The notes below the pieces were generated by a model. The model did no database searches, was not told the origin of the DNA, and was given only the letters and a program-made list of their open reading frames with translations. DNA of 35,588 bases from a virus (lineage: Duplodnaviria > Heunggongvirae > Uroviricota > Caudoviricetes). This document shows, piece by piece, positions 2,098 to 26,648 of the stretch. The number at the start of each line of letters is the position of its first letter. The first letter of the stretch is position 1. The stretch lies in IMG/VR virus record IMGVR_UViG_2585427725_000018. One strand, 5' to 3'. The translations under genes were made by a program, and so were the position numbers.

Positions 2098-2644
2098 GCC
2101 CCTTCTCCTCCGCGGTTTGTTTATTTATCATCTTTATAGAGCTTTCATCTATAAACATACTGGCTTCCAGGAGAGCAATTATCATGCTTCCCAAAATAGA
2201 GGACAGTTTGATTGATGCTTTCTTTGAATCATCATTTTTCCCATCGTATTCTGAATAACCAAAATAATCTTTGAATAGAAGGCTTTCAATGTCATCAAAG
2301 AAGAAAAAGGATGTAGTTATAACAATTATTGGCTTCTTGTCTATTATCTGAAACGTTACATTTGTTTTATTGAATTTAATTGATGTGTCATTAACTATCT
2401 TAACTAACTCCATCATGTTATTCGCTACTGGGCGATTAACTATACTCATTGTGAGCGATGGAGAAAATCCTGAATCATCAAAATTCAAATAATATTGAGT
2501 TACAGATGATTCATCTTTGTATTCTTTGTCTATGAAACTTTGTATTATTTTTTTATTCAAAGTCGAGCCATCACTTTCATTATATAATTCAATATTATCA
2601 TCATATCTAAGGGCTACACTATCGCGAATCAAATCAATCAACAT
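2084..2644 (-). CDS. Hypothetical acidic soluble protein (accessory cassette gene 1)
   Basis: 186 aa, Asn/Ile/Lys/Asp-rich, no motif I can recognise. ATG at 2644 (track start 2650 is a TTG two codons upstream) with GAGGT about 9 nt upstream. AT-rich. Confidence 0.55.
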   Translation of the reverse strand: MLIDLIRDSVALRYDDNIELYNESDGSTLNKKIIQSFIDKEYKDESSVTQYYLNFDDSGFSPSLTMSIVNRPVANNMMELVKIVNDTSIKFNKTNVTFQIIDKKPIIVITTSFFFFDDIESLLFKDYFGYSEYDGKNDDSKKASIKLSSILGSMIIALLEASMFIDESSIKMINKQTAEEKGHVKN

Positions 2645-2677
2645 TATCAAAAGACCTCAATTGTTATTCCATGCATA

Positions 2678-2707
2678 ATTATACTAAAAGTATCTTAAAA
2701 ACAGCAA
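2678..2707 (-). promoter_or_regulatory. Sigma70-type promoter driving the accessory cassette
   Basis: On the minus strand: -35 TTGCTG (2707-2702), 18 nt spacer, -10 TATAAT (2683-2678). Predicted start about 27 nt upstream of the ATG at 2644. Confidence 0.55.
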
Positions 2708-2867
2708 AATTTTACATTGGTGATACCTATATGTTGATTGTCCCTCTGAACAGGGGGAACTGCTTTTACAATAATGAATGTAGGGCATTCTGGCGCAGAG
2801 CGGTCAGTCTGATAGGGTTGTGTCATAATCGTGTCAGTACATGCCTGAACTAATACATCTAAGTTGC

Positions 2868-3977
2868 TCACTCTGTTTCTGCTATCCATTCCGGGATTTT
2901 TGCTTCAAGCTCAAGCTGCGTGGTAAAGCCGCTGTTATCAATGGTGTGCTCGGCTTTTGCAATAATCCAGTCCTGATTGTCGATGTCACTTTTGAAGCCT
3001 GTCACCGTGCCATGCATTTCAGGGTAGAGTTCTGCACGTCCACGCGCCAGCGTGATGGAGAATGATGCGGCTCCGCGTTGTAGCTGCTGCCACTTTGCCG
3101 CCGCTGCGCGTCTTGCTGCCTGCTCGTTCTGATAAGTCTTGCGTAACACAAAAACATTGCCTTCCGCACCTTCCATATAATCACCTTCACGGCTGCTGCT
3201 TTTCTCCTTTTTGGGCTTGGGCGGTTTGCGGCGTTTCACGCTGACTTTTTTCTTTTTCCCGTAATTAAGATCAAGCCAGTAAGCGCGTACCCCCGTATAC
3301 GCTTCGCGGTCAGCAATGCGGAACTGATGGCGATCGCCACTGCTGCGCGTGATGGCGAACGAGGGCAACGGCTGGCCCTGTGCGTTCACGCCACCGCCTG
3401 GCATGATGAATAACAGATTACCGCTTTTTACCGTAGTGATTGCGCCCAGCATTTCCGCCATGCGCGTAAGGAAGGACATGTCGCTTTCTTCAGTCTGGTC
3501 GGCGTGGTCGATTTCGATATCCATCAGCATTTCGCTGATTTGCGGTTTCAGGCCGTACCGATGAGCGATGGCGGATACCACACGCTCAACGGTCACATCA
3601 TGCCATGACACCTCACGTTTAACGTTAAATTCATCCCGAAAATCTGCGCTTCTGGCTGAAACAGTCAGCCTGTCGGGCGGTCCTTCATGAGCAATTTCAT
3701 CAACAATGTAAGTGCCTTTTTCTGTCAGCGGTTCTCCCTTCCAGCCAATGAGAACCGTCAGGCGCGCGCCCCGTGGCGGTAGCTGCAACTGACCATCCGC
3801 ATCATCCAGCGTGATGGTGAGCTGGTCCGCCTCAAATCCCCGGTTGTCGGTCAGTGACAGGCTCATCAGGCGCTCTGCCACGCCTGACAGCGTTTTACCC
3901 TCCGCGAGAATATCAAAATCCGGCATTTTCACGGGGTCTGTGCCCTGACTGAGCAATTGCATGGTGGTGTCGGTCAT
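2868..3977 (-). CDS. D: Tail protein D (late control gene D family)
   Basis: Long ORF with gpD-like sequence and a Lys-rich linker (KKKKVSVKRRKPPKPKKEK). Start set at the internal ATG (MTDTT...) preceded by GGGAGGGAG; the track ORF extends 44 codons further upstream. Confidence 0.85.
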   Translation of the reverse strand: MTDTTMQLLSQGTDPVKMPDFDILAEGKTLSGVAERLMSLSLTDNRGFEADQLTITLDDADGQLQLPPRGARLTVLIGWKGEPLTEKGTYIVDEIAHEGPPDRLTVSARSADFRDEFNVKREVSWHDVTVERVVSAIAHRYGLKPQISEMLMDIEIDHADQTEESDMSFLTRMAEMLGAITTVKSGNLLFIMPGGGVNAQGQPLPSFAITRSSGDRHQFRIADREAYTGVRAYWLDLNYGKKKKVSVKRRKPPKPKKEKSSSREGDYMEGAEGNVFVLRKTYQNEQAARRAAAAKWQQLQRGAASFSITLARGRAELYPEMHGTVTGFKSDIDNQDWIIAKAEHTIDNSGFTTQLELEAKIPEWIAETE

Positions 3978-4037
3978 CTGCTCCCTCCCTGTGCGGCATG
4001 GTCGCATGTGCGTGCGGAGGGGGTTACTGCTTTTTGT

Positions 4038-4055
4038 TGTCGCCGGGTCGGGAGA
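4038..4055 (+). promoter_or_regulatory. Candidate Ogr-dependent late promoter element upstream of FI (TGT-N12-AGA)
   Basis: TGT cgccgggtcggg AGA centred about 88 bp upstream of the FI ATG. The same TGT-N12-AGA arrangement appears in the O/P divergent region. Late promoters of this family carry a TGT-N12-ACA element near -55. Confidence 0.3.
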
Positions 4056-4134
4056 ACGGCGCAGGGGTGAGATTACGCGCGTGGTGGGTGATGATTGTTG
4101 CCGAATCATTTAACGGATACAAGGGGCTGAAGCT

Positions 4135-5319
4135 ATGAGTGAAACTCGTTTTCATGGTGCCCGTGTTACGGAAAGTACCGACCTGGTAACAGCGATTAAT
4201 GATGTTGATTCCAGTGTTATCGGTATCGTGGCAACGGCGGATGATGCGGACGCGGAGCTGTTCCCGCTGAACAAGCCCACACTGCTGACCCGCGTCAATG
4301 ACGTGCTGGGAAAATGCGGAACAACGGGGACGCTTTATCGTGCGCTTAAGGCCATCGCAGACCAGGTGAGCACAAAGGTGATCGTCGTTCGCGTGGCTGA
4401 ACACAAAGAAGAAGACGGAAAAACGCAGGATCAACTGGTTATCGGTGGTTCTGAATCTGACGGCAGCTATACGGGGATGTATGCGCTGCTTGTTGCAGAG
4501 CAGGATGAAAGCATCGGATACCGTCCGCGTATTCTGGCCGCGCCGGAGCTGGACACGGAGGCGGTAACAAAATCCCTGTGCGTGATTGCAGGTAAACTGC
4601 GCGCGTTTGTGTATGCCTCATGTCACGGCTGTAACACGATGGCTGAGGCGATTACCTACCGCCAGAAATTCAACGAACGTGAGGTGATGCTCTTATGGCC
4701 AGACTTCATCGCCTACAACCCGAAAAGTGGCAAAAACGAAACGTTCCCCGCGCCTGCCTATGCGTGCGGCCTTCGTGCGTACATTGACCATGAGCAGGGA
4801 TGGCACAAATCACTGTCCAACGTTCCGGTTAAAAATGTGCTGGGGATGTCGAGGCATGTGTTCTGGTCGTTGCAGGCCGAAGACAGCGATGCCAACAGCC
4901 TCAACAACAAAGAAATCACGACCATTATTCGTCGCAACGGGTTCCGCTTCTGGGGCAACCGCACACCGGAAACGAACGCCTACATCTTTGAGGTGTATAC
5001 CCGAACCGCACAGGTGCTGGCTGATTCAATTGCGGAAGCGCAGTTTGAAACCATCGACAGTCCACTGACGCCTGCGAACGTGAAGGATGTTATCAGTGCC
5101 ATCAGGGCAAAACTGGATTCGCTGGTTACTGCCGGGAAACTGATTGGTGCGGAGTGCTGGTATGACGTGGTGGATAACGGCACCACGAATTTACGTCAGG
5201 GACGTGTGCGTATTCGCTACAAATATACGCCCGTTCCGCCACTGGAAGACATGGAGCTTTACCAGACGTTTACTGATGAATTCTTTGGTCCCGCATTTGC
5301 GGTGCTGGGAGGTGCCTGA
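4135..5319 (+). CDS. FI: Tail sheath protein FI
   Basis: 394 aa, strong similarity to P2 FI along the whole length (e.g. LRAFVYAS, LLWPDF, DHEQGWHKSLSNV, IRRNGFRFWGNRT, YTPVPPLE). AAGGGG RBS. Confidence 0.95.
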   Translation: MSETRFHGARVTESTDLVTAINDVDSSVIGIVATADDADAELFPLNKPTLLTRVNDVLGKCGTTGTLYRALKAIADQVSTKVIVVRVAEHKEEDGKTQDQLVIGGSESDGSYTGMYALLVAEQDESIGYRPRILAAPELDTEAVTKSLCVIAGKLRAFVYASCHGCNTMAEAITYRQKFNEREVMLLWPDFIAYNPKSGKNETFPAPAYACGLRAYIDHEQGWHKSLSNVPVKNVLGMSRHVFWSLQAEDSDANSLNNKEITTIIRRNGFRFWGNRTPETNAYIFEVYTRTAQVLADSIAEAQFETIDSPLTPANVKDVISAIRAKLDSLVTAGKLIGAECWYDVVDNGTTNLRQGRVRIRYKYTPVPPLEDMELYQTFTDEFFGPAFAVLGGA

Positions 5320-5831
5320 TGGCTGTACCAAAACATCTTCGCTTTTTTACGTTGTTTGTGGATGGTGAAAACGAAGTGGGTAAAGTGACATCCGTCACGC
5401 CGCCCAAACTGACGCGCAAAACCGACAGCTATCGTGGTGGTGGCATGATGGGGGCGGTAAGTATTGATCTCGGTCTGGACGACTCCGCGCTTGATGCGAG
5501 TTTTGTTATGGGGGGAGCTGTTCGTGCGCTGTTCCTTAAATATGGCGGCACGATTGACGGCACGCTGCTGCGTTTTGCGGGTGAATACTACACCGATGCA
5601 GAAAGCGATCTGTATGAAATCGAGATGCGCGGACGTGTGACGGAAATTGATATGGGGGAAGCCAAACAGGGCGAAGCCACATCACACACTTACGCTGTCA
5701 AAAACACCTACTACAAGCTGAGCGTTAACGATCGCCCGCTGTGGGAAATCGACCTGTTGAACCACATCTACCGGAAGGACGGCAAGGACATTGTGCCTGA
5801 CCGTATCCGTTCCGCGCTTGGGCTTGGCTGA
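5319..5831 (+). CDS. FII: Tail tube protein FII
   Basis: 170 aa; ATGA start/stop overlap with FI; GGGAGGTG RBS; conserved position after the sheath gene. Confidence 0.9.
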   Translation: MAVPKHLRFFTLFVDGENEVGKVTSVTPPKLTRKTDSYRGGGMMGAVSIDLGLDDSALDASFVMGGAVRALFLKYGGTIDGTLLRFAGEYYTDAESDLYEIEMRGRVTEIDMGEAKQGEATSHTYAVKNTYYKLSVNDRPLWEIDLLNHIYRKDGKDIVPDRIRSALGLG

Positions 5832-5886
5832 TAAGTAATATGCAGGCGGCGCAGTGCGTCGCCTCTGACTGAAAAGGAGACAACTG

Positions 5887-6261
5887 ATGAAAGACATCGA
5901 TACTGAAACCCGGAATAACACCGTGGCGGATGATGTGACGGCAGGTGAGGATATGGCTGTCGAACGTGGCGTAAAACTGACCCGACCAATTGAGCGTGGT
6001 GGCGAAAAAATCACGTATGTGGAGATCACCGGGGCTATTGAACAGGCTGGATCCCTGCGTGGTCTGTCGCTGTCTGATGTGCTGAATCTGAAAGCGGATA
6101 CCATGTTCACGCTGTTGCCTCGCGTGACCTCGCCACGACTGGATGAAGTGATGATTAAAAAAATGTCGTCACGCGATTTTATTCAGTTGTGCGCTGTGGC
6201 TGTAAATTTTATGAGCGAGCCAGACTCTGGCGCGAAGAGCGTGCAGGAGACGGCAGCGTAA
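5887..6261 (+). CDS. E: Tail assembly chaperone E
   Basis: AAGGAG 7 nt upstream of the ATG; conserved position between tube and tape-measure genes; contains the slippery A-run used for the E' fusion. Confidence 0.8.
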   Translation: MKDIDTETRNNTVADDVTAGEDMAVERGVKLTRPIERGGEKITYVEITGAIEQAGSLRGLSLSDVLNLKADTMFTLLPRVTSPRLDEVMIKKMSSRDFIQLCAVAVNFMSEPDSGAKSVQETAA

Positions 6262-6425
6262 TCACCCTGGTGTGCTTTGAGCACATCGAAGATCTGGTGG
6301 CAGATATCGCCGCCATTTTTAACTGGTCGCCCGCCGAAATCTTCATGATGACGCCCGGCGAAGTGGTTAGCTGGCGTGAGCGGGCGGCACTTCGCAGCGG
6401 GAATGCAGACAATGAAGACTCTTGA
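5887..6425 (+). CDS. Tail assembly chaperone E+E' (programmed -1 frameshift product)
   Basis: The -1 frame is open from 6159 to the stop at 6423-6425 and encodes ...FNWSPAEIFMMTPGEVVSWRERAALRSGNADNEDS, similar to the P2 E' C-terminus. The shift is predicted at the A7 run. Confidence 0.7.
6157..6163 (+). other. Slippery heptanucleotide (AAAAAAA) for the E/E' -1 frameshift
   Basis: A7 run decoded as AAA AAA in the E frame. The -1 frame has a TAA immediately upstream (6156-6158) and is open downstream, so the shift must occur here. Confidence 0.6.
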
Positions 6426-9219
6426 TATCCGGGTCGCTTTCAGCGCCGTTGACAGGCTGACCCGGCCTGCCGAAAACGCCCGCCGCCTGATGGGGCAGTT
6501 TGGTGACTCCATCCAGCGAACGCAGGGGGCGATCAAAAATCTCGAGCGTCAGGCGCGTTCGTTTGAGCGCGCCCGTGACGCTGTCAGTAAAGCGGATGCG
6601 GGCATCGTGAAAGCACGACGCCAGCTTAACGCCCTTAATCAGTTACAACGCACGGGTACAGTGCTCAGCGAAAAACAACAAAAGCTGATGCAGCAGTTAA
6701 GCACCCGGCTTGAACGCCTGAATGAATCGCGCACACGGGAAATTCAGAAAATGCGGGAACTTGGCGGAGAGCTGAAACGCCACGGCATTTCCCTGACAGG
6801 CAGCGATAACACCATCCAGCAGGCCATCAGACGCACCGAACAGTACAATAACCAGCTTGAACGCGAACGGCAGGCGCTTGCGCGTGTAACGCGGGCGCGT
6901 GAGCGGTATTCGCGCGCGCAGGAAACAGCGGGAAAACTGAAAACAGGTGGTGCGCTGGCAATTGGTGCGGCAGCGGCTGGCGGCTATGCTGCCGGGCGTT
7001 TTTTGCAGCCTGCGATCGGGTTCGGCAAAGAGATGTCCCGAGTTCAGGCACTGACGCGAATCGACAAAAACAGCCCGCAGTTTAAGGCGCTGCGTGAGCA
7101 GGCGTTAAAACTTGGCTCTGAAACGCAGTTCACCGCAGGCGATGCCGCCAGTGGGCAGGCATTTCTTGCAATGGCTGGCTTCACACCACAGGCCATTCAG
7201 GCTGCGCTTCCCGGCGTGCTGAGCATGGCAACGGCTGGCGGTATGGATCTCGGCGAGACGGCGGATATTGGCTCAAATATCCTGACGCAGTTCGGCCTTT
7301 CTGCTGACCAGATGGACCAGGTCGGTGACACACTCACCGCAGCGTTTACCCGTACCAACACTGACCTTCGCGCACTGGGCGAAACCATGAAATATGCCGG
7401 TCCGGTGGCGGGTAAGCTGGGGATATCGCTGGAGCAGGCCGCAGCGATGGCGGGCGTGCTGGCGAATATGGGCATCAGAGGGAGTGATGCCGGGACGGCA
7501 ATGCGTGCCAGCCTGGCTCGTCTGGCATCACCGCCAAAGGCGGCGGCAGAAGCTCTGAAAGAGCTGGGCGTGTCCGTCTCGGATGCCGGGGGCAAAATGC
7601 GCCCGATGGAAGATCTGCTGGCTGACCTCTATAAAGCTACCCGCAAATACGGGGAAGTTGACCGGGTATCCTTCTTTAAGGACATCGCCGGGGAAGAGGC
7701 TTTCACATCGTTTATGGCTCTCGTTGATGCGGCGGGTGACGGTTCCTTACCCAAACTGAGAAAAGAACTTGAGGGCGCACGCGGTGAGGCTGAACGCACG
7801 GCAAAGGTTATGGCCAACAACCTTGATGGCGATCTGAAATCACTCGGCAGTGCATGGGAAGGGTTGCGCATCCGCATTGCAGATCTGATTGACGGTCCGC
7901 TGCGTTCTGTCACGCAGTGGCTCACGCGGGTGGTCTCAAAAGTGACGGCACTGGCGCAGGCCCATCCGGCACTGACGCGCCAGTTACTGATAGCGGGAGG
8001 CGCACTGCTGGCGACAACAGCAACGGTTGGTTCGTTGTCTCTGGTTATTGGGGTGCTTCACGGGAAGCTGGCTACGTTACGTCTCGGTTTTTCTCTCCTG
8101 ACAGGATCAATGAATGTCGTCAGGGTGCTGCCAGCACTATGGGGAATGGTAACAGGTTCCATCTCGTTGCTGGGTGGCGCTATCGGGGCGCTGTTCAGTC
8201 CGGTTGGATTGATTGCTGCTGCGTTTGTGGCTGCGGCGGTTCTCATCTGGAAATACTGGGAACCCATCAAGGCGTTTTATGCAGGGGTGTTCAGTGGGAT
8301 TATGGAACGGCTGGCTCCGTTGCGCGAAACCTTTGAACGGTTCGGTCCTGTTTTTGATGTCGTGCGCGATGGGATCATTCAGGTCTTTAACTGGTTTAAA
8401 TCGCTGCTGTCACCGATGGAGTCCGGCAAGGAAACGCTGGATAAATGTACCAGTGCTGGCGAGGTATTCGGCAGGGTACTCGGTGGAGCGATAGAGCTTG
8501 TCCTGACGCCAACAAAAGCATTGATGGATTCACTGGCGTGGATACTTGAAAAGCTCGGAGTGCTTCCGGATGAAGCGGAAAGGGCGAGAAAGAAAATCGA
8601 AGACGCACAGCGTGCGGCCATTCTTCAGGACAAGGTTGCCTTGCTTCAGGGGGACCTGGCGAAAATCAATCCGCCGAAGCCTGTGGAAAATGGCAATGGC
8701 ACCGGAGGTGATAAACCCAAAGACAATAAACCGCTCACAGACAGCAATACCGGGACGCTACGCAGACTCAGCAAAATTGCTGATAACACAGGTAAGCTGG
8801 TTGATGAGACGAAAAAACGCATTGGCCCCGGCGATATTGTCTTTAAGAACCTGCCCCGCGCACTTGCTGTTCGTGGGGAGTGGCAGGAGCGGAAGATTGC
8901 GCAGGTCAGTAAGCCTGCCCCCGCAATTAATATCACACCCGTGGTCCCGGCTCCGCTGCCTCCGGCGCTGGTCCCTGTTGTTGCGGCCAGCTCCCGCCCG
9001 GTGGCGGAGGCCATACGATCTCCAGTGGCATCAGTTCCTGTAACTTTCCGTAACCGGGAGCCTGTTGCCTCCGGATTTGGTGGTGAAATTCATGTTCATC
9101 TGCATAACGTTGTTACGCAGAATCCCCGCGAACTGGCGAAACTGGTCGGTGAAATGGTCAGGGCAGAAATGGAACGGCGCGCCCGTGCCGGGCGTGGCAG
9201 TTTTTACGATAAAGATTGA
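6412..9219 (+). CDS. T: Tail tape measure protein T
   Basis: About 935 aa, coiled-coil N-terminus, Gly/Ala-rich hydrophobic middle and a conserved IRKYWEPI-like segment. Start chosen at MKTLDIRV by alignment to the P2 T N-terminus; in-frame ATG at 6403 is an alternative. Confidence 0.9.
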   Translation: MKTLDIRVAFSAVDRLTRPAENARRLMGQFGDSIQRTQGAIKNLERQARSFERARDAVSKADAGIVKARRQLNALNQLQRTGTVLSEKQQKLMQQLSTRLERLNESRTREIQKMRELGGELKRHGISLTGSDNTIQQAIRRTEQYNNQLERERQALARVTRARERYSRAQETAGKLKTGGALAIGAAAAGGYAAGRFLQPAIGFGKEMSRVQALTRIDKNSPQFKALREQALKLGSETQFTAGDAASGQAFLAMAGFTPQAIQAALPGVLSMATAGGMDLGETADIGSNILTQFGLSADQMDQVGDTLTAAFTRTNTDLRALGETMKYAGPVAGKLGISLEQAAAMAGVLANMGIRGSDAGTAMRASLARLASPPKAAAEALKELGVSVSDAGGKMRPMEDLLADLYKATRKYGEVDRVSFFKDIAGEEAFTSFMALVDAAGDGSLPKLRKELEGARGEAERTAKVMANNLDGDLKSLGSAWEGLRIRIADLIDGPLRSVTQWLTRVVSKVTALAQAHPALTRQLLIAGGALLATTATVGSLSLVIGVLHGKLATLRLGFSLLTGSMNVVRVLPALWGMVTGSISLLGGAIGALFSPVGLIAAAFVAAAVLIWKYWEPIKAFYAGVFSGIMERLAPLRETFERFGPVFDVVRDGIIQVFNWFKSLLSPMESGKETLDKCTSAGEVFGRVLGGAIELVLTPTKALMDSLAWILEKLGVLPDEAERARKKIEDAQRAAILQDKVALLQGDLAKINPPKPVENGNGTGGDKPKDNKPLTDSNTGTLRRLSKIADNTGKLVDETKKRIGPGDIVFKNLPRALAVRGEWQERKIAQVSKPAPAINITPVVPAPLPPALVPVVAASSRPVAEAIRSPVASVPVTFRNREPVASGFGGEIHVHLHNVVTQNPRELAKLVGEMVRAEMERRARAGRGSFYDKD

Positions 9220-9231
9220 GGAGTCATGGCC

Positions 9232-9720
9232 ATGATGATGATCTACGGCATGTTTGTTTTTGAGCTGCGCACGCTGCCGCATCAGCAGTTACAGCAAAAC
9301 AAAAGCTGGCGGCATGTGAAAAATGAACGCGTTAACCGTTCAGCAAGCTGGCAGTATATCGGTGCAGGTGATGATCGCATCGTTCTTTCTGGTGTGCTTT
9401 ATCCTGAAATTACAGGTGGCGAAGTGTCGCTGTCGCTGCTGACCACGCAGGCGTATACAGGACGACCCTGGCCTTTGATTGATGGCGTCGGGCAGATTTA
9501 CGGCATGTATGTCCTGACCGGAACGAATACGACCCGTTCCGAGTTTGATCGCTACGGTAAGGCGAAAAAGATAGAATTTTCACTGACTCTTGAACGCTGT
9601 GATGAGGATTTGCGGGAGCGCCTGCAATCCTCATCGTTCAGCGATATGCTGTCCGGCTTCAAAGATAAAGTGACATCATCCCTTAACAGCACGGCCAGTT
9701 CAGTTAAAGGGCTGTTCTGA
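9232..9720 (+). CDS. U: Tail protein U
   Basis: MMMIYGMFVFELRTLPHQQL... aligns with the gpU N-terminus (MMVLGLFVFMLRTVPYQEL). GAGGAG 8 nt upstream of the ATG at 9232. Confidence 0.85.
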   Translation: MMMIYGMFVFELRTLPHQQLQQNKSWRHVKNERVNRSASWQYIGAGDDRIVLSGVLYPEITGGEVSLSLLTTQAYTGRPWPLIDGVGQIYGMYVLTGTNTTRSEFDRYGKAKKIEFSLTLERCDEDLRERLQSSSFSDMLSGFKDKVTSSLNSTASSVKGLF

Positions 9721-9890
9721 TTTAATGCTGGCCACTCATACCCTCATACCTGGTAATAAGTGGCCAGTCTTAACACTCACCATTTGATTGCACTGGTGTT
9801 AACGATTTGTTACTGGACATCAGGCACGCTGGATAGCCAGTAGAAACATACCATTAAAATTATTACAATAATTGGTCACATGATTATCTT

Positions 9891-10454
9891 ATGCTGAATA
9901 ATAGAGATATGAATATTAATGAACTTAAAGATTGTATTCACTATGAAGTAATCGGTAGCGAGCGTCCTTTCTCCTGGCGAAAGGCAATTGTTCGCGCAAT
10001 AAAACATAGAAGAGTTCGTTATTTATTTTGGTGGCGCATAGCCAAATACCTTTTTGATAAAGGCGGATACTGTCGGAAGATTGCGGGGAAAATAGAACGT
10101 TTCATTCTTGATAAATATAATGTAACAGTCCCTTTAACTGTAAATATAGGGAAAGGCTTTGATATTTCTTATCTCAACAGTGTTGTTATCGGTCACAAAG
10201 TAACAATCGGTGAAAATTGTTCAATAAAACCAAGGGTAACTATTGGGCTGCGTGGTGATTTTAATGATATGGATATTGTTATAGGACATAATGTGACCAT
10301 TGGTTGTAATGCCACCATTCTTGGTGGCAAAGTGCGTATAGGAAACAATGTCACAATAGGTGCTCATGCATTGGTATTGCATGATATTCCTGATGATTCA
10401 ACATTCATCACTAAATTTCAGTCTGAAGTTATCTGCTCGTCCTCCCGCACATAA
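9891..10454 (+). CDS. Hexapeptide-repeat (left-handed beta-helix) acetyltransferase, CysE/WcaB-like
   Basis: Tandem hexapeptide repeats ([51 protein letters not shown]) after an alpha-helical N-terminal region ([14 protein letters not shown]). AT-rich. Start uncertain (9891 or 9909), neither with a strong SD. 3' end overlaps the convergent gene G by 37 bp. Confidence 0.7.
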
Positions 10455-11035
10455 CCCTGATTCATCAGCTCTGGCCATACGATATCCGGAGCTGTACTGG
10501 TGTCAATTCTACTCACTAATACTCTGTATTTTCTCCAGGAATCCAGTTGTGAATTTTCCTCGTTTGTTGCTATTTCAAGATTAACTGCATCCTGCAGAAT
10601 TGCGATGTTATCTGTTGCTTCCTGGATCAACCTTGCCTTTTTCTCTTCCGCTTCCCGTATCCGAAACAGTTTTTCTGCTTCCTCATCCTTCACCCAGGAT
10701 ACGCCGTCCCACTTCTGATACTCCCCTGCTGGCGACAACCAGGTGACATTCTCTGGTAGCGGTCCGGGCTCAGAAATAAACAACGCGTCCCCCGATGCCA
10801 CGTCATAGACCGTTTTACCACGATGGTCTTCAACAAGATGCCACGATGCATCATCACTGTTGAAAACAGCCACGAAGCCAGCCGGAATATCTGGCGGTGC
10901 AATATCGGTACTGTTTGCTGGCAGGCCTGTATGAGGCGGAATGTATGCGTCACCTTCACCAATAAATTCATTAGTTCCGGCCAGCAGATTATAAATTGTT
11001 ATGGTCCGTGGTTGTTCACTCATTCTGAAATCCAT
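10418..11035 (-). CDS. G: Tail fibre assembly protein G
   Basis: Conserved Tfa C-terminus ([23 protein letters not shown]). ATG at 11035 with GAGG about 5 nt upstream; the track start 11041 is a GTG. Confidence 0.8.
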
Positions 11036-11043
11036 GTTCACCT

Positions 11044-11946
11044 CTACTTAATATCAGAGACAGAATATTGTTTGTTGAGCGTATGGGTGTGAGCACCAAT
11101 AACGATGCTACTTCCGTGGCTATGTGCGCCAGAGATGACATTACCTACGGGATTTTCTGGATTAATCCGGTGTATATGCGAACCAGGGCGAAACCGGTTA
11201 TTAGCCTGATGTTGTATCAGTACATCATCAGCCTGATGTTCAGGGTTAATACAGACCTGCCCGGAACGTGAGCAATATGTCCGATAATCGCCGCATCCAA
11301 TATATTTAGTATCCGCATAACGGCAAACAGAATTACCCGGACGGTATGCATATGTGCCAAATACTGCCGACTGGCGGGATTGTGCGTATTCCCAGTTAAT
11401 TGATTCTGTTTTTTTATTAAAGTTATCCCATGCCTGCTTCATCTGCCGGGCAACACTTTCAAACGGCACCTGACCACATCCGGCTCCCATTGCAGGGAAT
11501 ACCACCGTTTTTATTTTCCTGTCTGTCGTTGCGTGTTTATTGTGCTGAAAGATGGCAAGCAGAGCGGCCCAGGTTGCGTTATATACAGCGTCTGTTCCGT
11601 CAATTGTCAGCGGAACACGCATTGTTGGCGCATGTACCAGCCAGGGATGATGATTATGCCCCGTTTCAATAACAAATGCAGAACCTACAGGCTGCTCGCC
11701 TAGATATTCACGAAGAATATGATTCTGAACGCGGGACTGTAACTGAGTACCGAAGAATGCGGTAATGGCGGCATCAACACCGCCATCCATCAGGCCGAAA
11801 CTATTTGCCGCACTTACCATGCAGTTAAATTCCCTGATTGTTTCAAATGGCTTTCCGACAATATTCACATTATCTGCATTTGCGAATACCCGCTTAAATG
11901 CTTCAGCCATTTCTGTTACTGGTGCAGAAAGAATGAGCGTAATCAT
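11044..11946 (-). CDS. Macro-domain protein fused to a tail-fibre-tip-like His-box C-terminus
   Basis: N-terminal roughly 190 aa carry macro-domain signatures ([20 protein letters not shown]...; [15 protein letters not shown]). C-terminus contains GxHxH repeats ([19 protein letters not shown]) like those at the C-terminus of H. Start ATG overlaps the H stop (ATGA); GAGG RBS. Confidence 0.75.
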
Positions 11947-13769
11947 GCAAGCCTCACAATATAGTTAAATGCGATGTTTTTGACAGTGTTTTCCGCGTTA
12001 CCAGCAGCGTTAACGGTGATGGTGTGTCCATGTGAACCAATCGCAACAGAGTGCGTATGAGCGCCAATACCAACAGTGTGTGCATGTGCCCCAGCACTTG
12101 TAGCGGTACCTGATACTGAGTGGGTATGTGCGCCAGAAGAAGGCACAGTTCCATTCCCCACCACCGTGCCACTTGATGAACCATCCAGCCAGTCGAAATT
12201 CATACCGCCACTGTTTGGTCTCCTTAATGGAACGGTATGAGTATGTGCGCCAGCACTATTTGCAGTACCAGATACATTGTGGGTATGCGCACCTGTGTTA
12301 TTCGTTGATTTAGTACCGTAATCAAACGACGATGTGGTTTTCGTACCCAAATCCGTATTGGATGCGCTGGCGCTGTGGGTGTGCGATTTAATGCCATCCT
12401 GTTCCTGAGACAATACGGCCCGACCAGTGGCGGGGTTTCCTTTGATTGTCCAGCCACGCATATCAGGGAGCACACCAGAGGGATAAGCTACTGCAAGTTT
12501 CGGGTATGCTGATTTGTCAAAAGCCTGCCCCACCATGATAGCGTAACCGTCAGGCGGCGTATCTGACGGCCACGGCAGAGGTATTCCCGGTGGTAATGCT
12601 TCAATTCCCTTTGTGCCATCAAAAGCAACACCACTGATGGGGTGTGCTGTTTCCAGTTTACTTGCAGATACTGCGTTACCTGTTGCGGATAATGCGCCAA
12701 TATCCTGCACTGTGGGCTTGTTTTTATCCGTGTAAGTGCGGTACCAGATGGTTTTTTTTCCCTTGTCCAGTATCACCCCGGTAAATTGTGCCCGGTGTTC
12801 TTTTGTGGTCGGATCTGAATCTTCCAGCCCTGTGGTGATCCTGACTATTCCGCCGATGATTTCGCCAAACACTTCAATCAGGCAGCCGCCCAGGCCGATA
12901 TCACCGTACCCCGTGTCAGTAAGCACGCAGTGCTGTGACAGCGAAATATTAGCCCTGAATATCCAGCTCCCTGTTCTGAAGGCGCCACGCTCATTCAGCC
13001 ACTCCACGAATTGTTCCGTTGTCCAGCGTTGTCCTGCTTTACCTATGTACCCGTTTTTTGCATAAACGCGTGGTGTGCCCACGTTGATCAGGAACAGCTC
13101 CTTGTTGGGGATGTCCTCACCATTGCGGTTTTTCGCAAGCCGACCATCAGCGTTGTCCATGGCGATCTTTATGGCCTTTGGCGTGGCTGCCCGGGTCTCT
13201 GATGTACTGGTGGTGTCGCTGCTTAACTGAGTAAAACCTTTTGTGGTCAGCGAGGCATCCGGGTGACGTCGTGACTGTTCATGCTCTTTCAGTTTGTCAT
13301 CCACGTAATCCACTGTGGCCATCACCATGGTGTTATCCACGGTAAGCGCCACGGTGGCAGTGCTGGATACGGTCAGAATGGTGCGAAATGTTTGTGCACG
13401 TCCGGACCCTTCGGCAACGGTTGGTTTGTAACTTTCGGCAGTATTGCCCACCGCGATTAAATCGCCGTGCTCATCAAATACACCAATTTCCCGGATCCAG
13501 AATCCGCCCGTTTCAGGAGGAATAACCAGCTCCGCAATAATGCGGTTCTGATGTGTTGCGTCCAGGATGACGCGATTAACAGTGTGTCGCCACACCTCAT
13601 GCACCAGACGGATCTGCTTACTGTCTGGTGTGGGCAACGTGCCGCCACCGTCGCCCACGGCCATATGAGTCAGGCGGACAGGCTTACCATCTGGCGCGGC
13701 TGCCTGAGCTAATTTTTTTGCACCCGTATCGGTGATAACGGTTTTAAATTTTCGTGTTGTGGTACTCAT
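11943..13769 (-). CDS. H: Tail fibre protein H
   Basis: 608 aa. N-terminal about 200 aa closely match P2 H ([49 protein letters not shown]). C-terminal His-box repeats GAHTHSV...GAHAHTV...GAHTHSV. Confidence 0.9.
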
Positions 13770-22237: not shown

Positions 22238-22309
22238 AGTTTTTGCCCCTCTGACTGGTTCTTCAGTCATGATGGCAAAGCGTAACAGGCTGATACAAAG
22301 GGCTTTTGT

Positions 22310-22330
22310 TGTAAGAAAACGGCCAGAACA
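22310..22330. promoter_or_regulatory. Candidate Ogr-binding dyad in the divergent O/P late promoter region
   Basis: TGT-N12-AGA-ACA (TGT aagaaaacggcc aga aca), centred about 55 bp upstream of a -10-like TAATCT (22362-22367) for P, and at a symmetrical distance from the O start. Confidence 0.35.
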
Positions 22331-22391: not shown

Positions 22392-24143
22392 ATGATTCAG
22401 GACGCTTTTGTGCGCCAGCGTGCGCGGCAACTTTACTGGCAGGGTTATCCGCCCGCAGAAATATCACGTCTGATGGGAATAAACCCGAACACGATTTATG
22501 CGTGGAAAAAACGCGACCAGTGGGATGAAACGCCACCCGTGCAGCGTGTCACGCAGTCCATCGATGCGCGCCTCATCCAGCTCACTGAAAAACAGAATAA
22601 AACAGGTGGTGACTTTAAGGAAATAGACCTGCTGACCCGGCAGCTTAAAAAGCTGCATGATGGCCAGCCGGATGTGATGGCCGCAGGAAAGAAAGGCCGG
22701 GCGAAAAAACTCAAAAATCATTTCACGCCGGAACAGATTGCCGCACTGCGGGAAAAAATCATCAGCAGGCTGGAGTGGCATCAGCGGGGCTGGTTTGACT
22801 CCCTGACCCTTTGCAGGGAAGCCGGGATACGTAACAGGATGATCCTGAAATCCCGACAGATTGGGGCGACCTGGTATTTTGCACAGGAAGCACTGCTGAT
22901 GGCGCTGCGTGACGATGTGGCGCAACCTTACCAGCGTAACCAGATTTTTTTGTCTGCGTCGCGTCGTCAGGCGTTCCAGTTTAAAAGCATTATTCAGAAG
23001 GCCGCGGCTGAAGTTGATGTGGAGCTGAAAGGGGGCGATAAAATCATCCTCTCCAACGGCGCAGAGCTGCATTTTCTCGGCACATCTGCTGCGTCGGCAC
23101 AGTCCTATACGGGCAATTTTTATTTTGATGAATTTTTCTGGGTCAGTCGCTTTGCTGAACTGCGCAAGGTGGCTGGCGCTATGGCAACCCTCAGCGGACT
23201 GCGGCGCACCTACTTCTCCACGCCATCCACCGAAACGCACGAGGCATACGCCTACTGGAACGGCGACCGCTGGAACGAGAAAAAGGCCTCGCATAAACGC
23301 CAGCGTTTTTCTGTGGACTGGAAAACGCTGCATAACGGGCTTATCTGCCCTGACCGGACGTGGCGGCAAATTGTCACGCTGGAAGATGTGGTTAATCACG
23401 GCTGGAAACACACCGATATCGACGAAATTCGTGATGAAAACACCGAAGACGAGTTCCTCAATCTCTATATGTGTGAGTTTGTCCGCGAAGGGGAATCGGC
23501 ATTTAACCTGAATATCCTGATTGGCTGCGGTGTTGACGGATACGACGACTGGAAAGACTGGAAACCTTTTGCTCCCCGCCCGATGGGGAATCGTCCGGTA
23601 TGGATTGGGTATGACGCAAACGGCAGCAGTGGAAACGGCGACAGCGGCGCAGTGTCCGTGGTGGTTCCTCCGGCTGTTCCTGGTGGCCGTTTTCGAACGG
23701 TGGAGACGCGACGCGTTCAGGGGCTGGAGTTTGAAGAACAGGCCAGAGTAATTGAAGAGTTCACGTATCGCTACAACGTGGAACACATCGGCATTGATGT
23801 GACGGGCGGGAACGGGGAGGCTGTTTATCAGATAGTGAAACGGTTTTTCCCTGCTGCTATTCCGTACACCTTCACGCTGTCATCAAAACGGTCGCTGGTA
23901 CTGAAAATGCTGCAAATAATGCGTGCCGGGCGGTGGGAATACGATCGCGCCGAACGCGAGCTGGTCGCGGCCTTTAACGCCGTGCGTAAGGTGAAAACAC
24001 CGGGCGGCTTTATCACTTACGAAACGGACCGCGCGAGGGGGATCAGCCACGGCGACCTTGCGTGGGCAACCATGCTTGCTGTCATTAACGAACCGATTGG
24101 CGGCGAAGGAGAAAACGAGCGTTTCACGGTTATGGAGTTCTGA
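22392..24143 (+). CDS. P: Terminase ATPase (large) subunit P
   Basis: 583 aa; N-terminal HTH-like segment (EISRLMGINPNTIYAWKKRDQWDE), gpP-like throughout. Confidence 0.95.
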   Translation: MIQDAFVRQRARQLYWQGYPPAEISRLMGINPNTIYAWKKRDQWDETPPVQRVTQSIDARLIQLTEKQNKTGGDFKEIDLLTRQLKKLHDGQPDVMAAGKKGRAKKLKNHFTPEQIAALREKIISRLEWHQRGWFDSLTLCREAGIRNRMILKSRQIGATWYFAQEALLMALRDDVAQPYQRNQIFLSASRRQAFQFKSIIQKAAAEVDVELKGGDKIILSNGAELHFLGTSAASAQSYTGNFYFDEFFWVSRFAELRKVAGAMATLSGLRRTYFSTPSTETHEAYAYWNGDRWNEKKASHKRQRFSVDWKTLHNGLICPDRTWRQIVTLEDVVNHGWKHTDIDEIRDENTEDEFLNLYMCEFVREGESAFNLNILIGCGVDGYDDWKDWKPFAPRPMGNRPVWIGYDANGSSGNGDSGAVSVVVPPAVPGGRFRTVETRRVQGLEFEEQARVIEEFTYRYNVEHIGIDVTGGNGEAVYQIVKRFFPAAIPYTFTLSSKRSLVLKMLQIMRAGRWEYDRAERELVAAFNAVRKVKTPGGFITYETDRARGISHGDLAWATMLAVINEPIGGEGENERFTVMEF

Positions 24144-25189
24144 TGAGCAGAAAAAATAAAAAAGTGCGCATGAGTTCACGCATTGATCTCGCTGATGCGC
24201 TCAGGAAAGAATCGTCGCTCAGTGCATTCACATTTGATGGTCCTTATCGCCTGACCGGGCATGATTTGCTGGACAATATGTACTGTGCTGATAACGGGCG
24301 GTGGTATGAAACCCCGGTGGACTGGTACGGTCTGGCAAGAGCTGCCCGGCAAACGTCCTGGCATCAGTCTGCGCTTTACTTTAAGCGCAATGTATTGCTC
24401 GGTTGCTATATTCCGCACCCGCTGCTTTCCCGGCAGGATTTCTCGGCGCTGGCGCTGGACTGGTTTGTGTTCGGTAACGCATTCCTTGAGCTTCGAAGCA
24501 ATATGCTCGGCGAACCGCTTAAATTACGGCACGCCCTGGCGAAATACATGCGACGCGGAAGCGATCTTGAATCATGGTGGTATGTGCAGGATGGTAAGGA
24601 CGCGTTTCAGTTTCGCCCTGGCAAAGTGTGCCACCTGATGAATCCTGACATTAACCAGGAAATCTACGGCATGCCGGAATATCTCGGCGCATTACTCTCG
24701 GCCAGCCTGTCTCATTCGGCGGACATGTTCAGAAAACTGTATTACGACAACGGATCCCACGCCGGGTGCATCATCTACATCGGTGCAGCGCAGGTAAACC
24801 GCGAAAGCATGGACTCCCTGAAAGAAACGCTACAGGGTGCGCGTGGTGGCGGTGCGTTTAAAAACGTGCTCATTCATGCGCCCAACGGGGGCAAAGAGGG
24901 GGTGCAAATTTTGCCGTTCCAGCAGATCACCGCAAAGGATGAGTTCATGAATGTTAAGGCGGCATCCCGTGATGATGTGCTGGCTGCGCACCGCGTTCCG
25001 CCGCAACTGATGGGGGCGATGCCGGGTGAAAAAAGTGCGTTTGGTGATGTGGAGAAGGCCGCGCGGGTTTACGCAATTAACGAGCTGATGCCCGTCATGG
25101 AGGCCATGAAGCACATCAATGACTGGCTTGGCGAAGAGGTGATCCGCTTTAACCCTTACGCACTGTTAGACACCCAGCCCACATCCTGA
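24143..25189 (+). CDS. Q: Portal protein Q
   Basis: 348 aa; start overlaps the P stop (TGATG); gpQ-like. Confidence 0.95.
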   Translation: MSRKNKKVRMSSRIDLADALRKESSLSAFTFDGPYRLTGHDLLDNMYCADNGRWYETPVDWYGLARAARQTSWHQSALYFKRNVLLGCYIPHPLLSRQDFSALALDWFVFGNAFLELRSNMLGEPLKLRHALAKYMRRGSDLESWWYVQDGKDAFQFRPGKVCHLMNPDINQEIYGMPEYLGALLSASLSHSADMFRKLYYDNGSHAGCIIYIGAAQVNRESMDSLKETLQGARGGGAFKNVLIHAPNGGKEGVQILPFQQITAKDEFMNVKAASRDDVLAAHRVPPQLMGAMPGEKSAFGDVEKAARVYAINELMPVMEAMKHINDWLGEEVIRFNPYALLDTQPTS

Positions 25190-25726: not shown

Positions 25727-26269
25727 TTACATCGCAGGACTGATGCGTTCTGTCCTCGTGTTTCTCCTGCCACATGCTTTTCCGCCAGCCTTTATGATGG
25801 CTCTTTCAACATCCCGCTCGTATCGCAAGGGCTGAAATACGTCATTAATGAAATATTCGCTTATGTCCGGAAGCGATACTGCAAAATTATTTGTTTGTTG
25901 CGCCGTCCTGCTATGCAGCAAAGCGGCATGCTTTAATGCGTCCTGTGCTTTCTGGAATTTAAGTGCATAGTCAGTGGCGATTTTTTCCAGTTCAGCGATT
26001 CGGTTGTCTTTGGTTTCCAGCCAATCAAGTAGCGCCAATACTTCAGGATCCCCGACATCCAACACTGTTACGCGTGATTTTTCATAATGTTCGTCAGCAA
26101 GAGTTCGGCCAATTTTGAAATCTCCATCATCACCATAACCGGAGCAGGCATAAACAACCTGTGCTCCAGATATTCGCTGAATTGACATTTCCTCGCCGCA
26201 AATAGGGCATTTCGGTACTGGCACAGGTGAATAACGTTCACGTAATGCCTGATAGTTGATTTCGCTCAT
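25727..26269 (-). CDS. Ead/Ea22-like prophage protein with N-terminal zinc-ribbon-like motif
   Basis: 180 aa. N-terminus MSEINYQALRE... and an LALLDWLE coiled-coil segment resemble Ea22-like proteins as I recall them; CPICGEE...YACSGYG cysteine pairs. AAGGAG RBS. Confidence 0.5.
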   Translation of the reverse strand: MSEINYQALRERYSPVPVPKCPICGEEMSIQRISGAQVVYACSGYGDDGDFKIGRTLADEHYEKSRVTVLDVGDPEVLALLDWLETKDNRIAELEKIATDYALKFQKAQDALKHAALLHSRTAQQTNNFAVSLPDISEYFINDVFQPLRYERDVERAIIKAGGKACGRRNTRTERISPAM

Positions 26270-26332
26270 TAAGTCGTTCTCCTTGTTTATGTTCTGAGGT
26301 GGAGAGCAGGGCGAACTCGCCCTGATGTTGTG

Positions 26333-26644
26333 TTATTCAGGAAATAACGCCCGGATATTTCCGGCCATCTGACTGGTTATCTGTGCGGTTGATACTGGCT
26401 GTGATGCGGGGCGTTCTGTCCTGGTTTGTGTCACTGATAACGCTTCATCACCAGCCCATGCAGCCAGTCGATAAGCCTCAGCCGGATTCATTTTCAGAAG
26501 TGCCAGCCCGGCCAGAAAAGCCACGCGTTGGCCGCTTTTGCGGGCTTCTGGTGTAAGGCTGTCCAGCCAGGCGCATGCTTCTCCTTCGTTCTTGACGGCG
26601 GTGGGCTTCAGATAGAAACTTATCCGTCTGGTTGGAGTCGTCAT
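26333..26644 (-). CDS. parR: ParR-like centromere-binding protein
   Basis: About 103 aa. RISFYLKP...AWLDSLTPEARKSGQRVAFLAGLALL...NIRALFPE parallels R1 ParR (RTIAFKLNP...LDSIPQGERSRLNRAALTAGLALY...ILRSLFPKE). AAGGAG RBS; sits directly after parM. Confidence 0.7.
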   Translation of the reverse strand: MTTPTRRISFYLKPTAVKNEGEACAWLDSLTPEARKSGQRVAFLAGLALLKMNPAEAYRLAAWAGDEALSVTQTRTERPASQPVSTAQITSQMAGNIRALFPE

Positions 26645-26648
26645 TGGT

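Follow-up and report, generated by a model that had tools for sequence, protein, structure and literature searches.

A tail-gene block inverted relative to phage P2 is the fixed, lineage-typical layout of P88-like prophages

The window analyzed here, a stretch of 35,588 nucleotides of viral DNA taken at its full length, is a complete P2-family prophage belonging to the P88-like genus Xuanwuvirus (Peduoviridae), and its tail genes FI-FII-E-E′-T-U lie on the strand opposite to that of the remaining late genes. Comparison with relatives showed the inverted FI–U block to be a lineage-typical, fixed layout that reflects neither a switch nor a misassembly nor any recent change. The explanation as a whole, namely a Xuanwuvirus prophage carrying a single ancient inversion that has since become fixed, with one dyad shared by FI and D, is considered highly probable.

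The P2 late gene set Q, P, O, N, M, L, X, R, S, V, W, J, I, H, FI, FII, E, T, U, and D was found to be complete in the window, with amino acid identities of 26–67% in tblastn searches with the P2 proteins and in agreement with Pfam, and the integrase and repressor C were found by tblastn to be 54 and 52% identical, respectively, to their P2 counterparts. The window shows the features of Peduoviridae, namely the P2 late gene set, an Ogr/Delta zinc-finger activator, and a P2-type integrase and repressor. The order G-(slot)-FI-FII-E-T-U-D-ogr of P2, 186, and phiCTX is not found, with FI–U being on the other strand; the reference phages typically have this collinear arrangement, but it is no formal criterion of the family, and three ICTV genera have the inverted order. 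With respect to the genus, positions 2600–11100 of the window were 81% covered at 95–97% identity by Xuanwuvirus phages in megablast comparisons, and positions 10589–35588 were ~75–79% covered at ~96% identity by P88-like phages. According to the genus convention of the ICTV, members have a genome-wide nucleotide similarity of ~70% or more to the type phage. The product of coverage and identity against P88 and phiSM is roughly 0.75, an approximate figure rather than a formal intergenomic distance, and on this figure the window lies within Xuanwuvirus. Furthermore, the Xuanwuvirus architecture—D on the minus strand, FI to U on the plus strand, a slot, and the fibre genes on the minus strand—matches the annotated P88 and phiSM maps gene for gene.

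The strands and identities of the late genes had been predicted from the sequence, and were confirmed by Pfam together with tblastn of the P2 proteins: V-W-J-I-H-Tfa, D, and ogr are on the minus strand, and FI-FII-E-E′-T-U (4135–9720) is on the plus strand. The minus-strand gene ogr (1105–1380), encoding the zinc-finger late-gene activator, lies downstream of D on the same strand and was identified by a Pfam Ogr_Delta match (E = 5.9e-14) and by 42% identity to P2 Ogr in tblastn; an open reading frame at 1128–1346 was rejected as ogr. Gene D (2868–3977, minus strand), encoding the baseplate hub or late control protein D of 369 amino acids, matches Pfam Phage_GPD and is 48% identical to P2 gpD over residues 15–384. 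Its start was placed at 3977, with GGAGG upstream and a product equal in length to the phiSM D protein; the start at 4109, giving the maximal open reading frame, was set aside. With this choice of start, D and FI diverge across a 157-bp intergenic region (3978–4134), as had been predicted.

On the plus strand, FI (4135–5319), encoding the tail sheath, contains Pfam sheath domains and is 46% identical to P2 FI, and it is followed by FII (5319–5831), encoding the tail tube, with a Pfam Phage_tube match (E = 2e-45) and 42% identity to P2 FII. The tail assembly chaperone gene E (5887–6261) has a weak match to Pfam Phage_TAC_7 and 35% identity to P2 E. The E′ reading frame (6189–6425) is an open reading frame in the −1 frame relative to E and is annotated in relatives as a GpE family protein; A_AAT_TTT at 6204–6210 is a candidate slippery site for E/E′. 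The tape measure gene T (6376–9219) was identified by Pfam PhageMin_Tail (E = 2e-57) and 33% identity to P2 T, and the annotated T start of relatives corresponds to position 6412. The final gene of the block is the tail gene U (9226–9720), with a Pfam Phage_P2_GpU match (E = 1.5e-38) and 46% identity to P2 U. Converging on U is the last gene of the minus-strand late operon, a lambda Tfa-like tail fibre assembly gene equivalent to G (10418–11041), which matches Pfam Caudo_TAP (E = 1.8e-39) and is ~90% identical in nucleotide sequence to the lambda tfa region. In P2, V to G, FI to U, D, and ogr are all on the same strand, with FI to U, D, and ogr forming one rightward operon, whereas in the window the FI–U part is reversed and D-ogr stands as a unit of its own. 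Indeed, given the one-strand P2 map, flipping the FI–U block would give the P2 order, with an acetyltransferase gene in the Z/fun position, as originally predicted.

The same layout was found throughout the close relatives. In megablast comparisons with P88, P884B11, phiSM, PhiR44_2, Chuche, and 500465-2, D through U matched in a single collinear piece at 92–97% identity, and in 520873 the D–U match consisted of two pieces around an IS insertion. The strands in the annotated maps of P88 and phiSM are identical to those of the window, and across Xuanwuvirus (P88, P884B11, Citrobacter phage phiSM, 520873, PhiR44_2, and Chuche) the order of ogr, D, FI-FII-E-E′-T-U, and the fibre genes, the strands, and the D/FI intergenic region are the same. 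P88 and phiSM are isolated, plaque-forming phages with the inverted layout (PMC5285337, PMC6456863), and phages with this layout have been found to yield particles or plaques (PMC5285337, PMC6456863, PMC5261728, PMC9826266). Among complete E. coli genomes, the D/FI junction was collinear in 1301 of 5426, or about a quarter, and the canonical U–D junction, searched for with a synthetic query, was joined in none of the 1414 E. coli genomes carrying window DNA.

A wider survey used one-genome-per-species contigs, with prophage loci grouped by D identity; one example at 74% identity, CP052639.1, was left out as a scrambled linear record. All 48 loci with D proteins 61–99% identical to that of the window, from more than 20 genera of Enterobacterales, were inverted (U, T, FII, and FI on one strand and D and ogr on the other), whereas none of the 32 loci with D at 47–54% identity were; in 30 of these, D is collinear with T, U, or the entire block, and the other two lack any neighboring tail gene. 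Outside the genus, Salmonella phages SEN4 and SEN5 (Senquatrovirus) and Klebsiella phage 3LV2017 (Reginaelenavirus) have the FI–U block inverted beside D as in the window, as seen in the SEN5 and 3LV2017 maps, and SEN5 also shares the order of fibre, macro-domain, and Tfa genes. These three phages differ from the window in having D proteins only 63–70% identical and different slot contents, and megablast detected no DNA-level similarity between them and the D-to-fibre region of the window. The genome maps of phiCTX and P2 show the canonical order. The original prediction had allowed for a rearrangement or misassembly of this particular sequence, with the proviso that an arrangement common to all close relatives would instead be typical of the lineage; P88, phiSM, the E. 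coli genomes, and the 48 prophages bear out the latter, so that the inversion relative to P2 stands and its attribution to an event in this sequence does not.

Three other accounts of the inverted block were weighed against a single old inversion. A misassembly, or a rearrangement confined to this strain, has nothing in its favor beyond the difference from P2, and is hardly credible with the junction also present in the genomes of isolated phages, in the 1301 complete E. coli genomes, and in 48 prophages of other genera, and with the canonical junction being absent from the 1414 genomes searched. Just as implausible is a programmed switch in which a site-specific recombinase flips FI–U in the manner of Gin, Cin, or Hin. 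As with those systems, a DNA block of opposite orientation lies beside tail genes, and relatives such as P88 and phiSM encode a serine invertase directly after U; this invertase, however, adjoins a tail-fibre segment with alternative fibre and assembly genes, and therefore most likely flips that segment. Unlike Gin, Cin, and Hin segments, the window contains neither an invertase—a tblastn search with the P88 invertase gave a best E of 1.2, in accordance with the predicted absence of such a gene—nor bracketing repeats, and no genome was found with the block in the other orientation. A search for short inverted repeats pairing the 3978–4134 junction with the 9721–9890 junction, a check proposed with the original prediction, returned chance-level pairs only. 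The one pair near both ends (4036–4054 and 10721–10739; 19 nt, 79% complementary) was likewise rejected as a boundary, being at chance level and consisting of the Ogr box and part of the non-conserved Tfa gene. A flip of this kind, 5.6 kb in length, would moreover sever D from, or join D to, an operon, unlike any known switch.

The remaining account, in which a foreign FI–U cassette from another contractile-tail phage entered in the opposite orientation at the origin of the clade, is improbable, if less so than the other two. Phage genomes are mosaic, and the fibre, Tfa, and acetyltransferase region of the window is clearly so, with a lambda-like tfa and P1-like plasmid matches. Against replacement, FI, FII, E, T, and U are 33–46% identical to their P2 counterparts, comparable to the 26–67% of the other late genes (FI, FII, U, D, and J being at 33–48% by tblastn), and over 78 loci the divergence of the FI–U genes parallels that of D, J, I, and V. 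In particular, sequence change in FI, FII, and U tracks that in D and J, with median identities of 63–68% in the inverted group and 44–49% in the canonical group. The PF box and its spacing are also of the P2 type. If the block had been swapped with that of a close P2-type relative when the event took place, the result would be indistinguishable from a simple inversion.

The comparisons indicate that the FI-FII-E-E′-T-U operon underwent a single ancient inversion with respect to the P2/phiCTX order, with D and ogr retaining the late-gene strand. The clade bearing the inversion comprises Enterobacterales Peduoviridae including Xuanwuvirus, Senquatrovirus, and Reginaelenavirus; the inverted layout of the latter two genera and the canonical layout of phiCTX and P2 point to one old, fixed inversion. 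The canonical order is taken as ancestral on the basis of two reference genomes (phiCTX and P2) and the more distant loci, rather than of a formal ancestral reconstruction.

The intergenic region between D and FI, the putative site of a bidirectional pair of late promoters, PD and PF, contains an Ogr-type activator box, TTGTTGT-N12-AGAAC (4034–4057), with the core TGT-N12-AGA at 4038–4055. This core had been predicted as an element placed like a late-promoter Ogr site for FI, and its geometry is indeed of the P2 type. The window contains just two exact copies of the full motif, the second (22306–22329) lying in the divergent O/P intergenic region and serving as an internal reference for the late-promoter motif. 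A −10-like hexamer is present on each side at 34 nt from the box: GATGAT (4090–4095, plus strand), facing FI, and GACCAT (3998–4003, minus strand), facing D and preceded by TGc. Both fit the pattern xAxxxT, and the predicted starts, near 4102 for FI and near 3991 for D, are each 55 nt from the center of the box, matching the ~55 nt that separate the partial dyad TGT-N12-ACA from the start in P2-type Ogr-dependent promoters, a correspondence of sequence only. Thus placed, with AGA for ACA in the dyad and a hexamer at the fixed distance of 34–35 nt, the elements have the sequence features of a P2-type late promoter.

The arrangement was also found to be conserved among relatives. A TGT-N12-A(C/G)A box, reading ACA or AGA, is located at the same place and at a constant distance from FI in 44 of the 48 related loci, and the distance between box and xAxxxT is exactly 34 nt in 43 of these 44 distinct relatives on the FI side and in 40 on the D side; the 44 box sequences are mutually related, and the counts do not represent independent events. 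The flanks are otherwise ~55–58% conserved, and the intergenic region is anywhere between 122 and 198 nt long. Of 17 canonical-type loci used as a control, 16 had a hexamer at 34 nt on the FI side but only 2 had one on the far side. The fixed value of 34 nt was obtained with the measurement anchored on the box. A shared dyad had at one stage seemed disfavored by box-to-D distances of 41–117 nt, which came from wrongly extrapolated D starts, the N-termini being different. A GTGA motif found conserved to either side of the box was rejected as a pair of mirror-image −35 elements, since the distances do not match (~21 vs ~40 nt) and the D-side GTGA is the TG of an extended −10.

On these grounds the inversion may have placed the FI late promoter, including its symmetric dyad for Ogr binding, beside the D start, such that one activator bound at 4038–4055 could drive two divergent late transcripts: from PF, starting near 4102 and running through FI to U, and from the clade-specific PD, starting near 3991 and running through D on to ogr. 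The divergent use of one dyad for FI and D, raised as a possibility in the original prediction, is backed by the comparative sequence evidence of the conserved 34-nt hexamers on both sides. That the inversion in this way created a fifth, clade-specific late promoter, PD, sharing one activator site with pF, is judged somewhat more probable than its converse. P2 offers a precedent, sharing with the window the divergent P-Q and O operons, Ogr, TGT-N12-xCA late-promoter boxes, and a −10 hexamer 34–35 nt downstream, the spacing in the mapped P2 promoters pF, pO, and pP being 34–35 nt. For the divergent P2 promoters pP and pO, one activator site is annotated midway between them (box at 3063–3080), with hexamers 34 nt away on each side and transcription mapped to begin 7 nt farther out, at 3016 and 3127. 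This 6+34+18+34+6 layout recurs in the D/FI region, and the O/P region of the window has the identical box; the pair in the window would drive D and FI, whereas that in P2 drives P and O, with the function being inferred in the former and mapped in the latter.

Some features fit the shared-dyad model less well, namely the AGA of the window box where the canonical sequence is ACA, the agreement of the D-side GACCAT with TATAAT at only three of six positions, a predicted D leader of only ~14 nt, and the TG before roughly half of the 44 D-side hexamers, an extended −10 element that could work without an activator. The D promoter might accordingly be an ordinary activator-independent, extended −10 sigma-70 promoter, with its distance to the Ogr box incidental, a reading to which the TG of these hexamers, including TGcGACCAT in the window, lends some weight. 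Such a promoter is nonetheless the less likely choice, given that the distance to the box is exactly 34 nt in 40 of the 44 relatives despite the variable intergenic length and weakly conserved flanks, and that the mapped Ogr-dependent promoters of P2 show this spacing as well; a lysogen would also not be expected to express a baseplate hub gene without regulation. If the shared-dyad model is correct, the region would exemplify in nature how a rearrangement can turn a one-way, activator-dependent promoter into a bidirectional one, with prophages from over 20 enterobacterial genera having kept the 34-18-34 nt geometry invariant since then. The hexamer-34-box-34-hexamer core provides a simple, testable model of one symmetric activator site serving two promoters, and no description of a shared-site PD/pF promoter was found in the literature searched.

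The inverted arrangement itself is the standard map of a named genus and two sister genera in public annotated records; the inversion is not mentioned in the published descriptions of P88, phiSM, SEN4/5, and Serratia PP4, nor was a mention found by literature search. The arrangement is ordinary and matters little for discovery. For prophage annotation, a deviation from the P2 map at D/FI is no ground for flagging misassembly, and the direction of FI–U with respect to D serves as a clean two-state marker separating the P88/SEN4/3LV2017 clade from P2-, 186-, and phiCTX-type phages.

Other parts of the window differ from its relatives in content. A 1.4-kb low-GC insert between D and ogr is rare and unlike the P88-like relatives, and its two open reading frames received no assignment by Pfam, PADLOC, or PHROGs. 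At the other end of the block, homology to P88 ends at ~9725 (megablast), just after U, where a G+C-rich hairpin (9727–9768, plus strand; inverted repeat I5) has a predicted RNA folding energy of −22.5 kcal/mol (z = −4.0); it possibly marks the end of the FI–U transcript, and no clear T run follows it. Beyond the hairpin, a hexapeptide acetyltransferase gene (9891–10454, plus strand; Pfam Hexapep, phrog_2154) is carried as cargo between U and the tail-fibre genes, in the P2 Z/fun position. P88 and phiSM have a serine invertase and an invertible fibre segment after U, whereas the window has the acetyltransferase, the lambda-like Tfa, and a macro-domain open reading frame; the slot between U and the tail-fibre genes would thus remain a cargo site, occupied here by the acetyltransferase.

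The 35.6-kb window carries a complete prophage of the P2 family, all late genes of which are matched by P2 proteins at 26–67% identity on the strands given here (tblastn against the window). The late-gene activator gene ogr (1105–1380; Pfam Ogr_Delta, E = 5.9e-14) and the baseplate hub/late control gene D (2868–3977) lie on the minus strand, and the tail genes FI (4135–5319), FII (5319–5831), E (5887–6261), E′ (a frame ending at 6425), T (ending at 9219), and U (ending at 9720) on the plus strand, followed there by a hexapeptide acetyltransferase gene (9891–10454). Beyond this block, the minus strand bears Tfa (the G equivalent), a macro-domain ORF, H, I, J, W, V, and the remaining late genes to O, from which P and Q (22392–25189) diverge in a P2-like manner. 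In the P2 reference record, by contrast, V-W-J-I-H-G, FI-FII-E-T-U-D, and ogr all occupy a single strand. The FI–U block is thus opposite to its P2 orientation, as originally predicted, and the gene coordinates confirm that it diverges from D over 157 bp (3978–4134) and converges on the fibre genes.

Several details of the gene calls deserve mention. An overlapping ORF at 1128–1346 was rejected as ogr, having no Pfam match. For E+E′, a candidate −1 slippery heptamer, A_AAT_TTT, is located at 6204–6210, with the −1 frame open over 6189–6425; it differs from the slippery site of P2, a T-run (GGTTTTTTG). In close E. coli prophages, the RefSeq (PGAP) annotation of D comprises only 801 bp (266 aa) and a small pseudo-ORF, with an apparent gap of ~470 bp before FI (11669–12469 in locus L004 and 5488–6288 in locus L089, equivalent to 2868–3668 of the window). 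The full 369-aa D ORF is covered without a break by the P2 gpD alignment.

The inverted order was initially regarded as unusual, and possibly as a misassembly, but the same layout is found in P88-like phages and in many E. coli genomes. When positions 2600–11100 were compared with phage genomes by megablast, the stretch from the end of D to that of U matched as one collinear piece (92–97% identity) in Escherichia phage P88, Xuanwuvirus P884B11, Citrobacter phage phiSM, PhiR44_2, Chuche, and 500465-2, and as two pieces separated by an IS insertion in 520873. P88 and phiSM, both viable, plaque-forming temperate phages (PMC5285337, PMC6456863), are annotated with each gene on the same strand as in the window. 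Sequence comparison places the window in the P88-like genus Xuanwuvirus, since the remainder is also covered to 75–79% at ~96% identity by P88-like phages. Furthermore, of 5426 complete E. coli genomes, 1301 matched a 1.4-kb query spanning the D/FI junction (3400–4800) collinearly, and a synthetic canonical junction, consisting of the last 500 nt of U and the first 500 nt of D, was joined in none of the 1414 E. coli genomes containing these sequences. The orientation of FI–U is fixed, without polymorphism, and the arrangement is neither a rearrangement of this window nor an artefact; being shared by close relatives, it is lineage-typical.

The extent of this lineage was surveyed by scanning a single genome of each bacterial species with a D protein alignment, yielding 80 prophage loci in which FI, FII, T, U, J, I, V, and ogr were placed by tblastn. 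All 48 loci whose D is 61–99% identical to that of the window show the inverted order (U−, T−, FII−, FI−, then D+, ogr+); their hosts are Salmonella, Trabulsiella, Symbiopectobacterium, Edwardsiella, Serratia, Erwinia, Enterobacter, Pantoea, Kosakonia, Citrobacter, Pectobacterium, Brenneria, Izhakiella, Klebsiella, Xenorhabdus, Providencia, Rouxiella, Dryocola, Photorhabdus, Hafnia, Morganella, and Yersinia. The inversion was found in none of the 32 loci with a D at P2 level (47–54% identity): T, U, or the entire block is collinear with D in 30, and the other two (L064 and L074) have too few tail-gene matches upstream of D for the entire block to be read. Of the named phages, Salmonella phage SEN5 (Senquatrovirus) and Klebsiella phage 3LV2017 (Reginaelenavirus) have the inverted order, and Pseudomonas phage phiCTX is canonical, as is P2. 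The simplest reading of these comparisons is that one ancient inversion occurred at the base of an enterobacterial clade of Peduoviridae and has been inherited since. Two records are irregular. L006 (NZ_JBQPOM010000071.1, "Vagococcus sp. WN89Y") is a 226-kb contig with an enterobacterial prophage region of the same synteny and a D 98% identical; contamination or mislabelling probably explains this assembly, labelled as a Gram-positive genus. L085 (CP052639.1, Klebsiella pneumoniae "plasmid unnamed"), a linear 32-kb record from the phage collection with a split sheath gene, the N-terminal piece (−) before D and the C-terminal piece (+) after it, appears to be an inverted-type prophage that has been permuted or misassembled.

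A programmed switch flipping the FI–U block is excluded by the single orientation among E. coli genomes with these sequences, no invertase homologue having been found in the window and no inverted repeats bracketing the block. P88 and phiSM do encode an invertase just after U, but because alternative tail-fibre and assembly genes are annotated in the adjoining segment, that segment, rather than FI–U, is most likely its target. A foreign cassette is also unlikely to have replaced the block: the median identities of FI, FII, and U to the window move in step with those of D and J (63–68% in the inverted group, 44–49% in the canonical group), the block is as similar to P2 as the remaining late genes are, and the promoter before FI is of the P2 type.

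At the far junction, homology to P88 stops ~5 nt past the U stop codon, and a stable hairpin follows U at 9727–9768 (−22.5 kcal/mol, z = −4.0). Between U and the fibre genes is a slot in which SEN5 has almost nothing, P88 and phiSM have an invertase and invertible segment, and the window and many E. coli genomes, including O157:H7, have the acetyltransferase. With contents that vary among relatives, it resembles the Z/fun cargo slot of P2 in its behaviour, in keeping with the original prediction. The slot (9726–11041) is itself mosaic, with the low-GC acetyltransferase accompanied by its own promoter-like sites (9841–9902) and Tfa sharing ~90% DNA identity with the lambda tfa region.

Cut off from the F operon, and with no gene upstream on its strand, D needs its own promoter. 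The D/FI region contains an activator box (TGT-N12-AGA, 4038–4055), and the longer form TTGTTGT-N12-AGAAC has just two exact copies in the window, one here and one at 22306–22329. It is taken as the late-activator box of this phage because the second copy lies between the divergent O and P. In the P2 record, one activator site is annotated for the divergent pO and pP (mapped starts 3016 and 3127); xAxxxT hexamers stand exactly 34 nt to each side of the box (3063–3080), with starts 7 nt past them, and pF has the same layout at 35 nt. The D/FI region matches the pO/pP pair, with GACCAT (3998–4003, read on the D strand and preceded by TGc) and GATGAT (4090–4095, facing FI) each 34 nt from the box, and predicted starts at ~3991 (−) and ~4102 (+).

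Of the 48 inverted loci, 44 have a single TGT-N12-A(C/G)A box, whose distance from FI is constant; the intergenic length ranges from 122 to 198 nt in the clade. Among the 44 distinct box-bearing sequences (the window and its relatives), xAxxxT lies exactly 34 nt away on the FI side in 43 and on the D side in 40; elsewhere in the flanks, the majority base averages only 0.54–0.58. Canonical-type loci, including P2, have the hexamer on the FI side in 16/17 cases but beyond the box in only 2/17, so the D-side hexamer is specific to the inverted clade. The suggestion that D might use the same dyad divergently is supported by this comparison. On this sequence-based reading, the inversion would have set the symmetric Ogr dyad of pF beside D, where a second outward-facing promoter, PD, would share it and drive D, and probably ogr downstream as well. 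The main rival, an activator-independent extended −10 promoter on the D side, is favored by a TG before the hexamer in about half of the sequences. The arrangement itself is already public in annotated genomes of three ICTV genera, and passes without comment in the searched literature on these phages; the putative shared-dyad PD/PF pair is the only, modestly new element.

Other genes were noted along the window. The macro-domain ORF (300 aa, 11044–11946, −; Pfam Macro, E = 7.7e-19; phrog_2613) lies between H and Tfa, and the order fibre, macro, Tfa is also annotated in SEN5, many E. coli prophages, and P1-like plasmids. D and ogr, adjacent in relatives, are separated by a low-GC (~0.31–0.35) insert (1381–2867), present in just 2 of the 5426 complete E. 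coli genomes; its two minus-strand ORFs (1693–2097 and 2084–2650) gave no convincing match in Pfam, PADLOC, or PHROGs, and may form an uncharacterised pair of cargo or defence genes inserted at a new site. ParM and StbB-like plasmid partition genes (26649–27608 and 26333–26779) and an Ead/Ea22-like gene (25727–26269) lie on the minus strand (25727–27608), flanked by Q and the replication gene; ParM is likewise annotated in P88, phiSM, and 520873. A TM2-domain protein whose N-terminus has a zinc ribbon is encoded at 341–637 (−), past ogr and close to the end of the prophage, and the end region in relatives carries Hok/Gef, TM2, Com, and methyltransferase genes.
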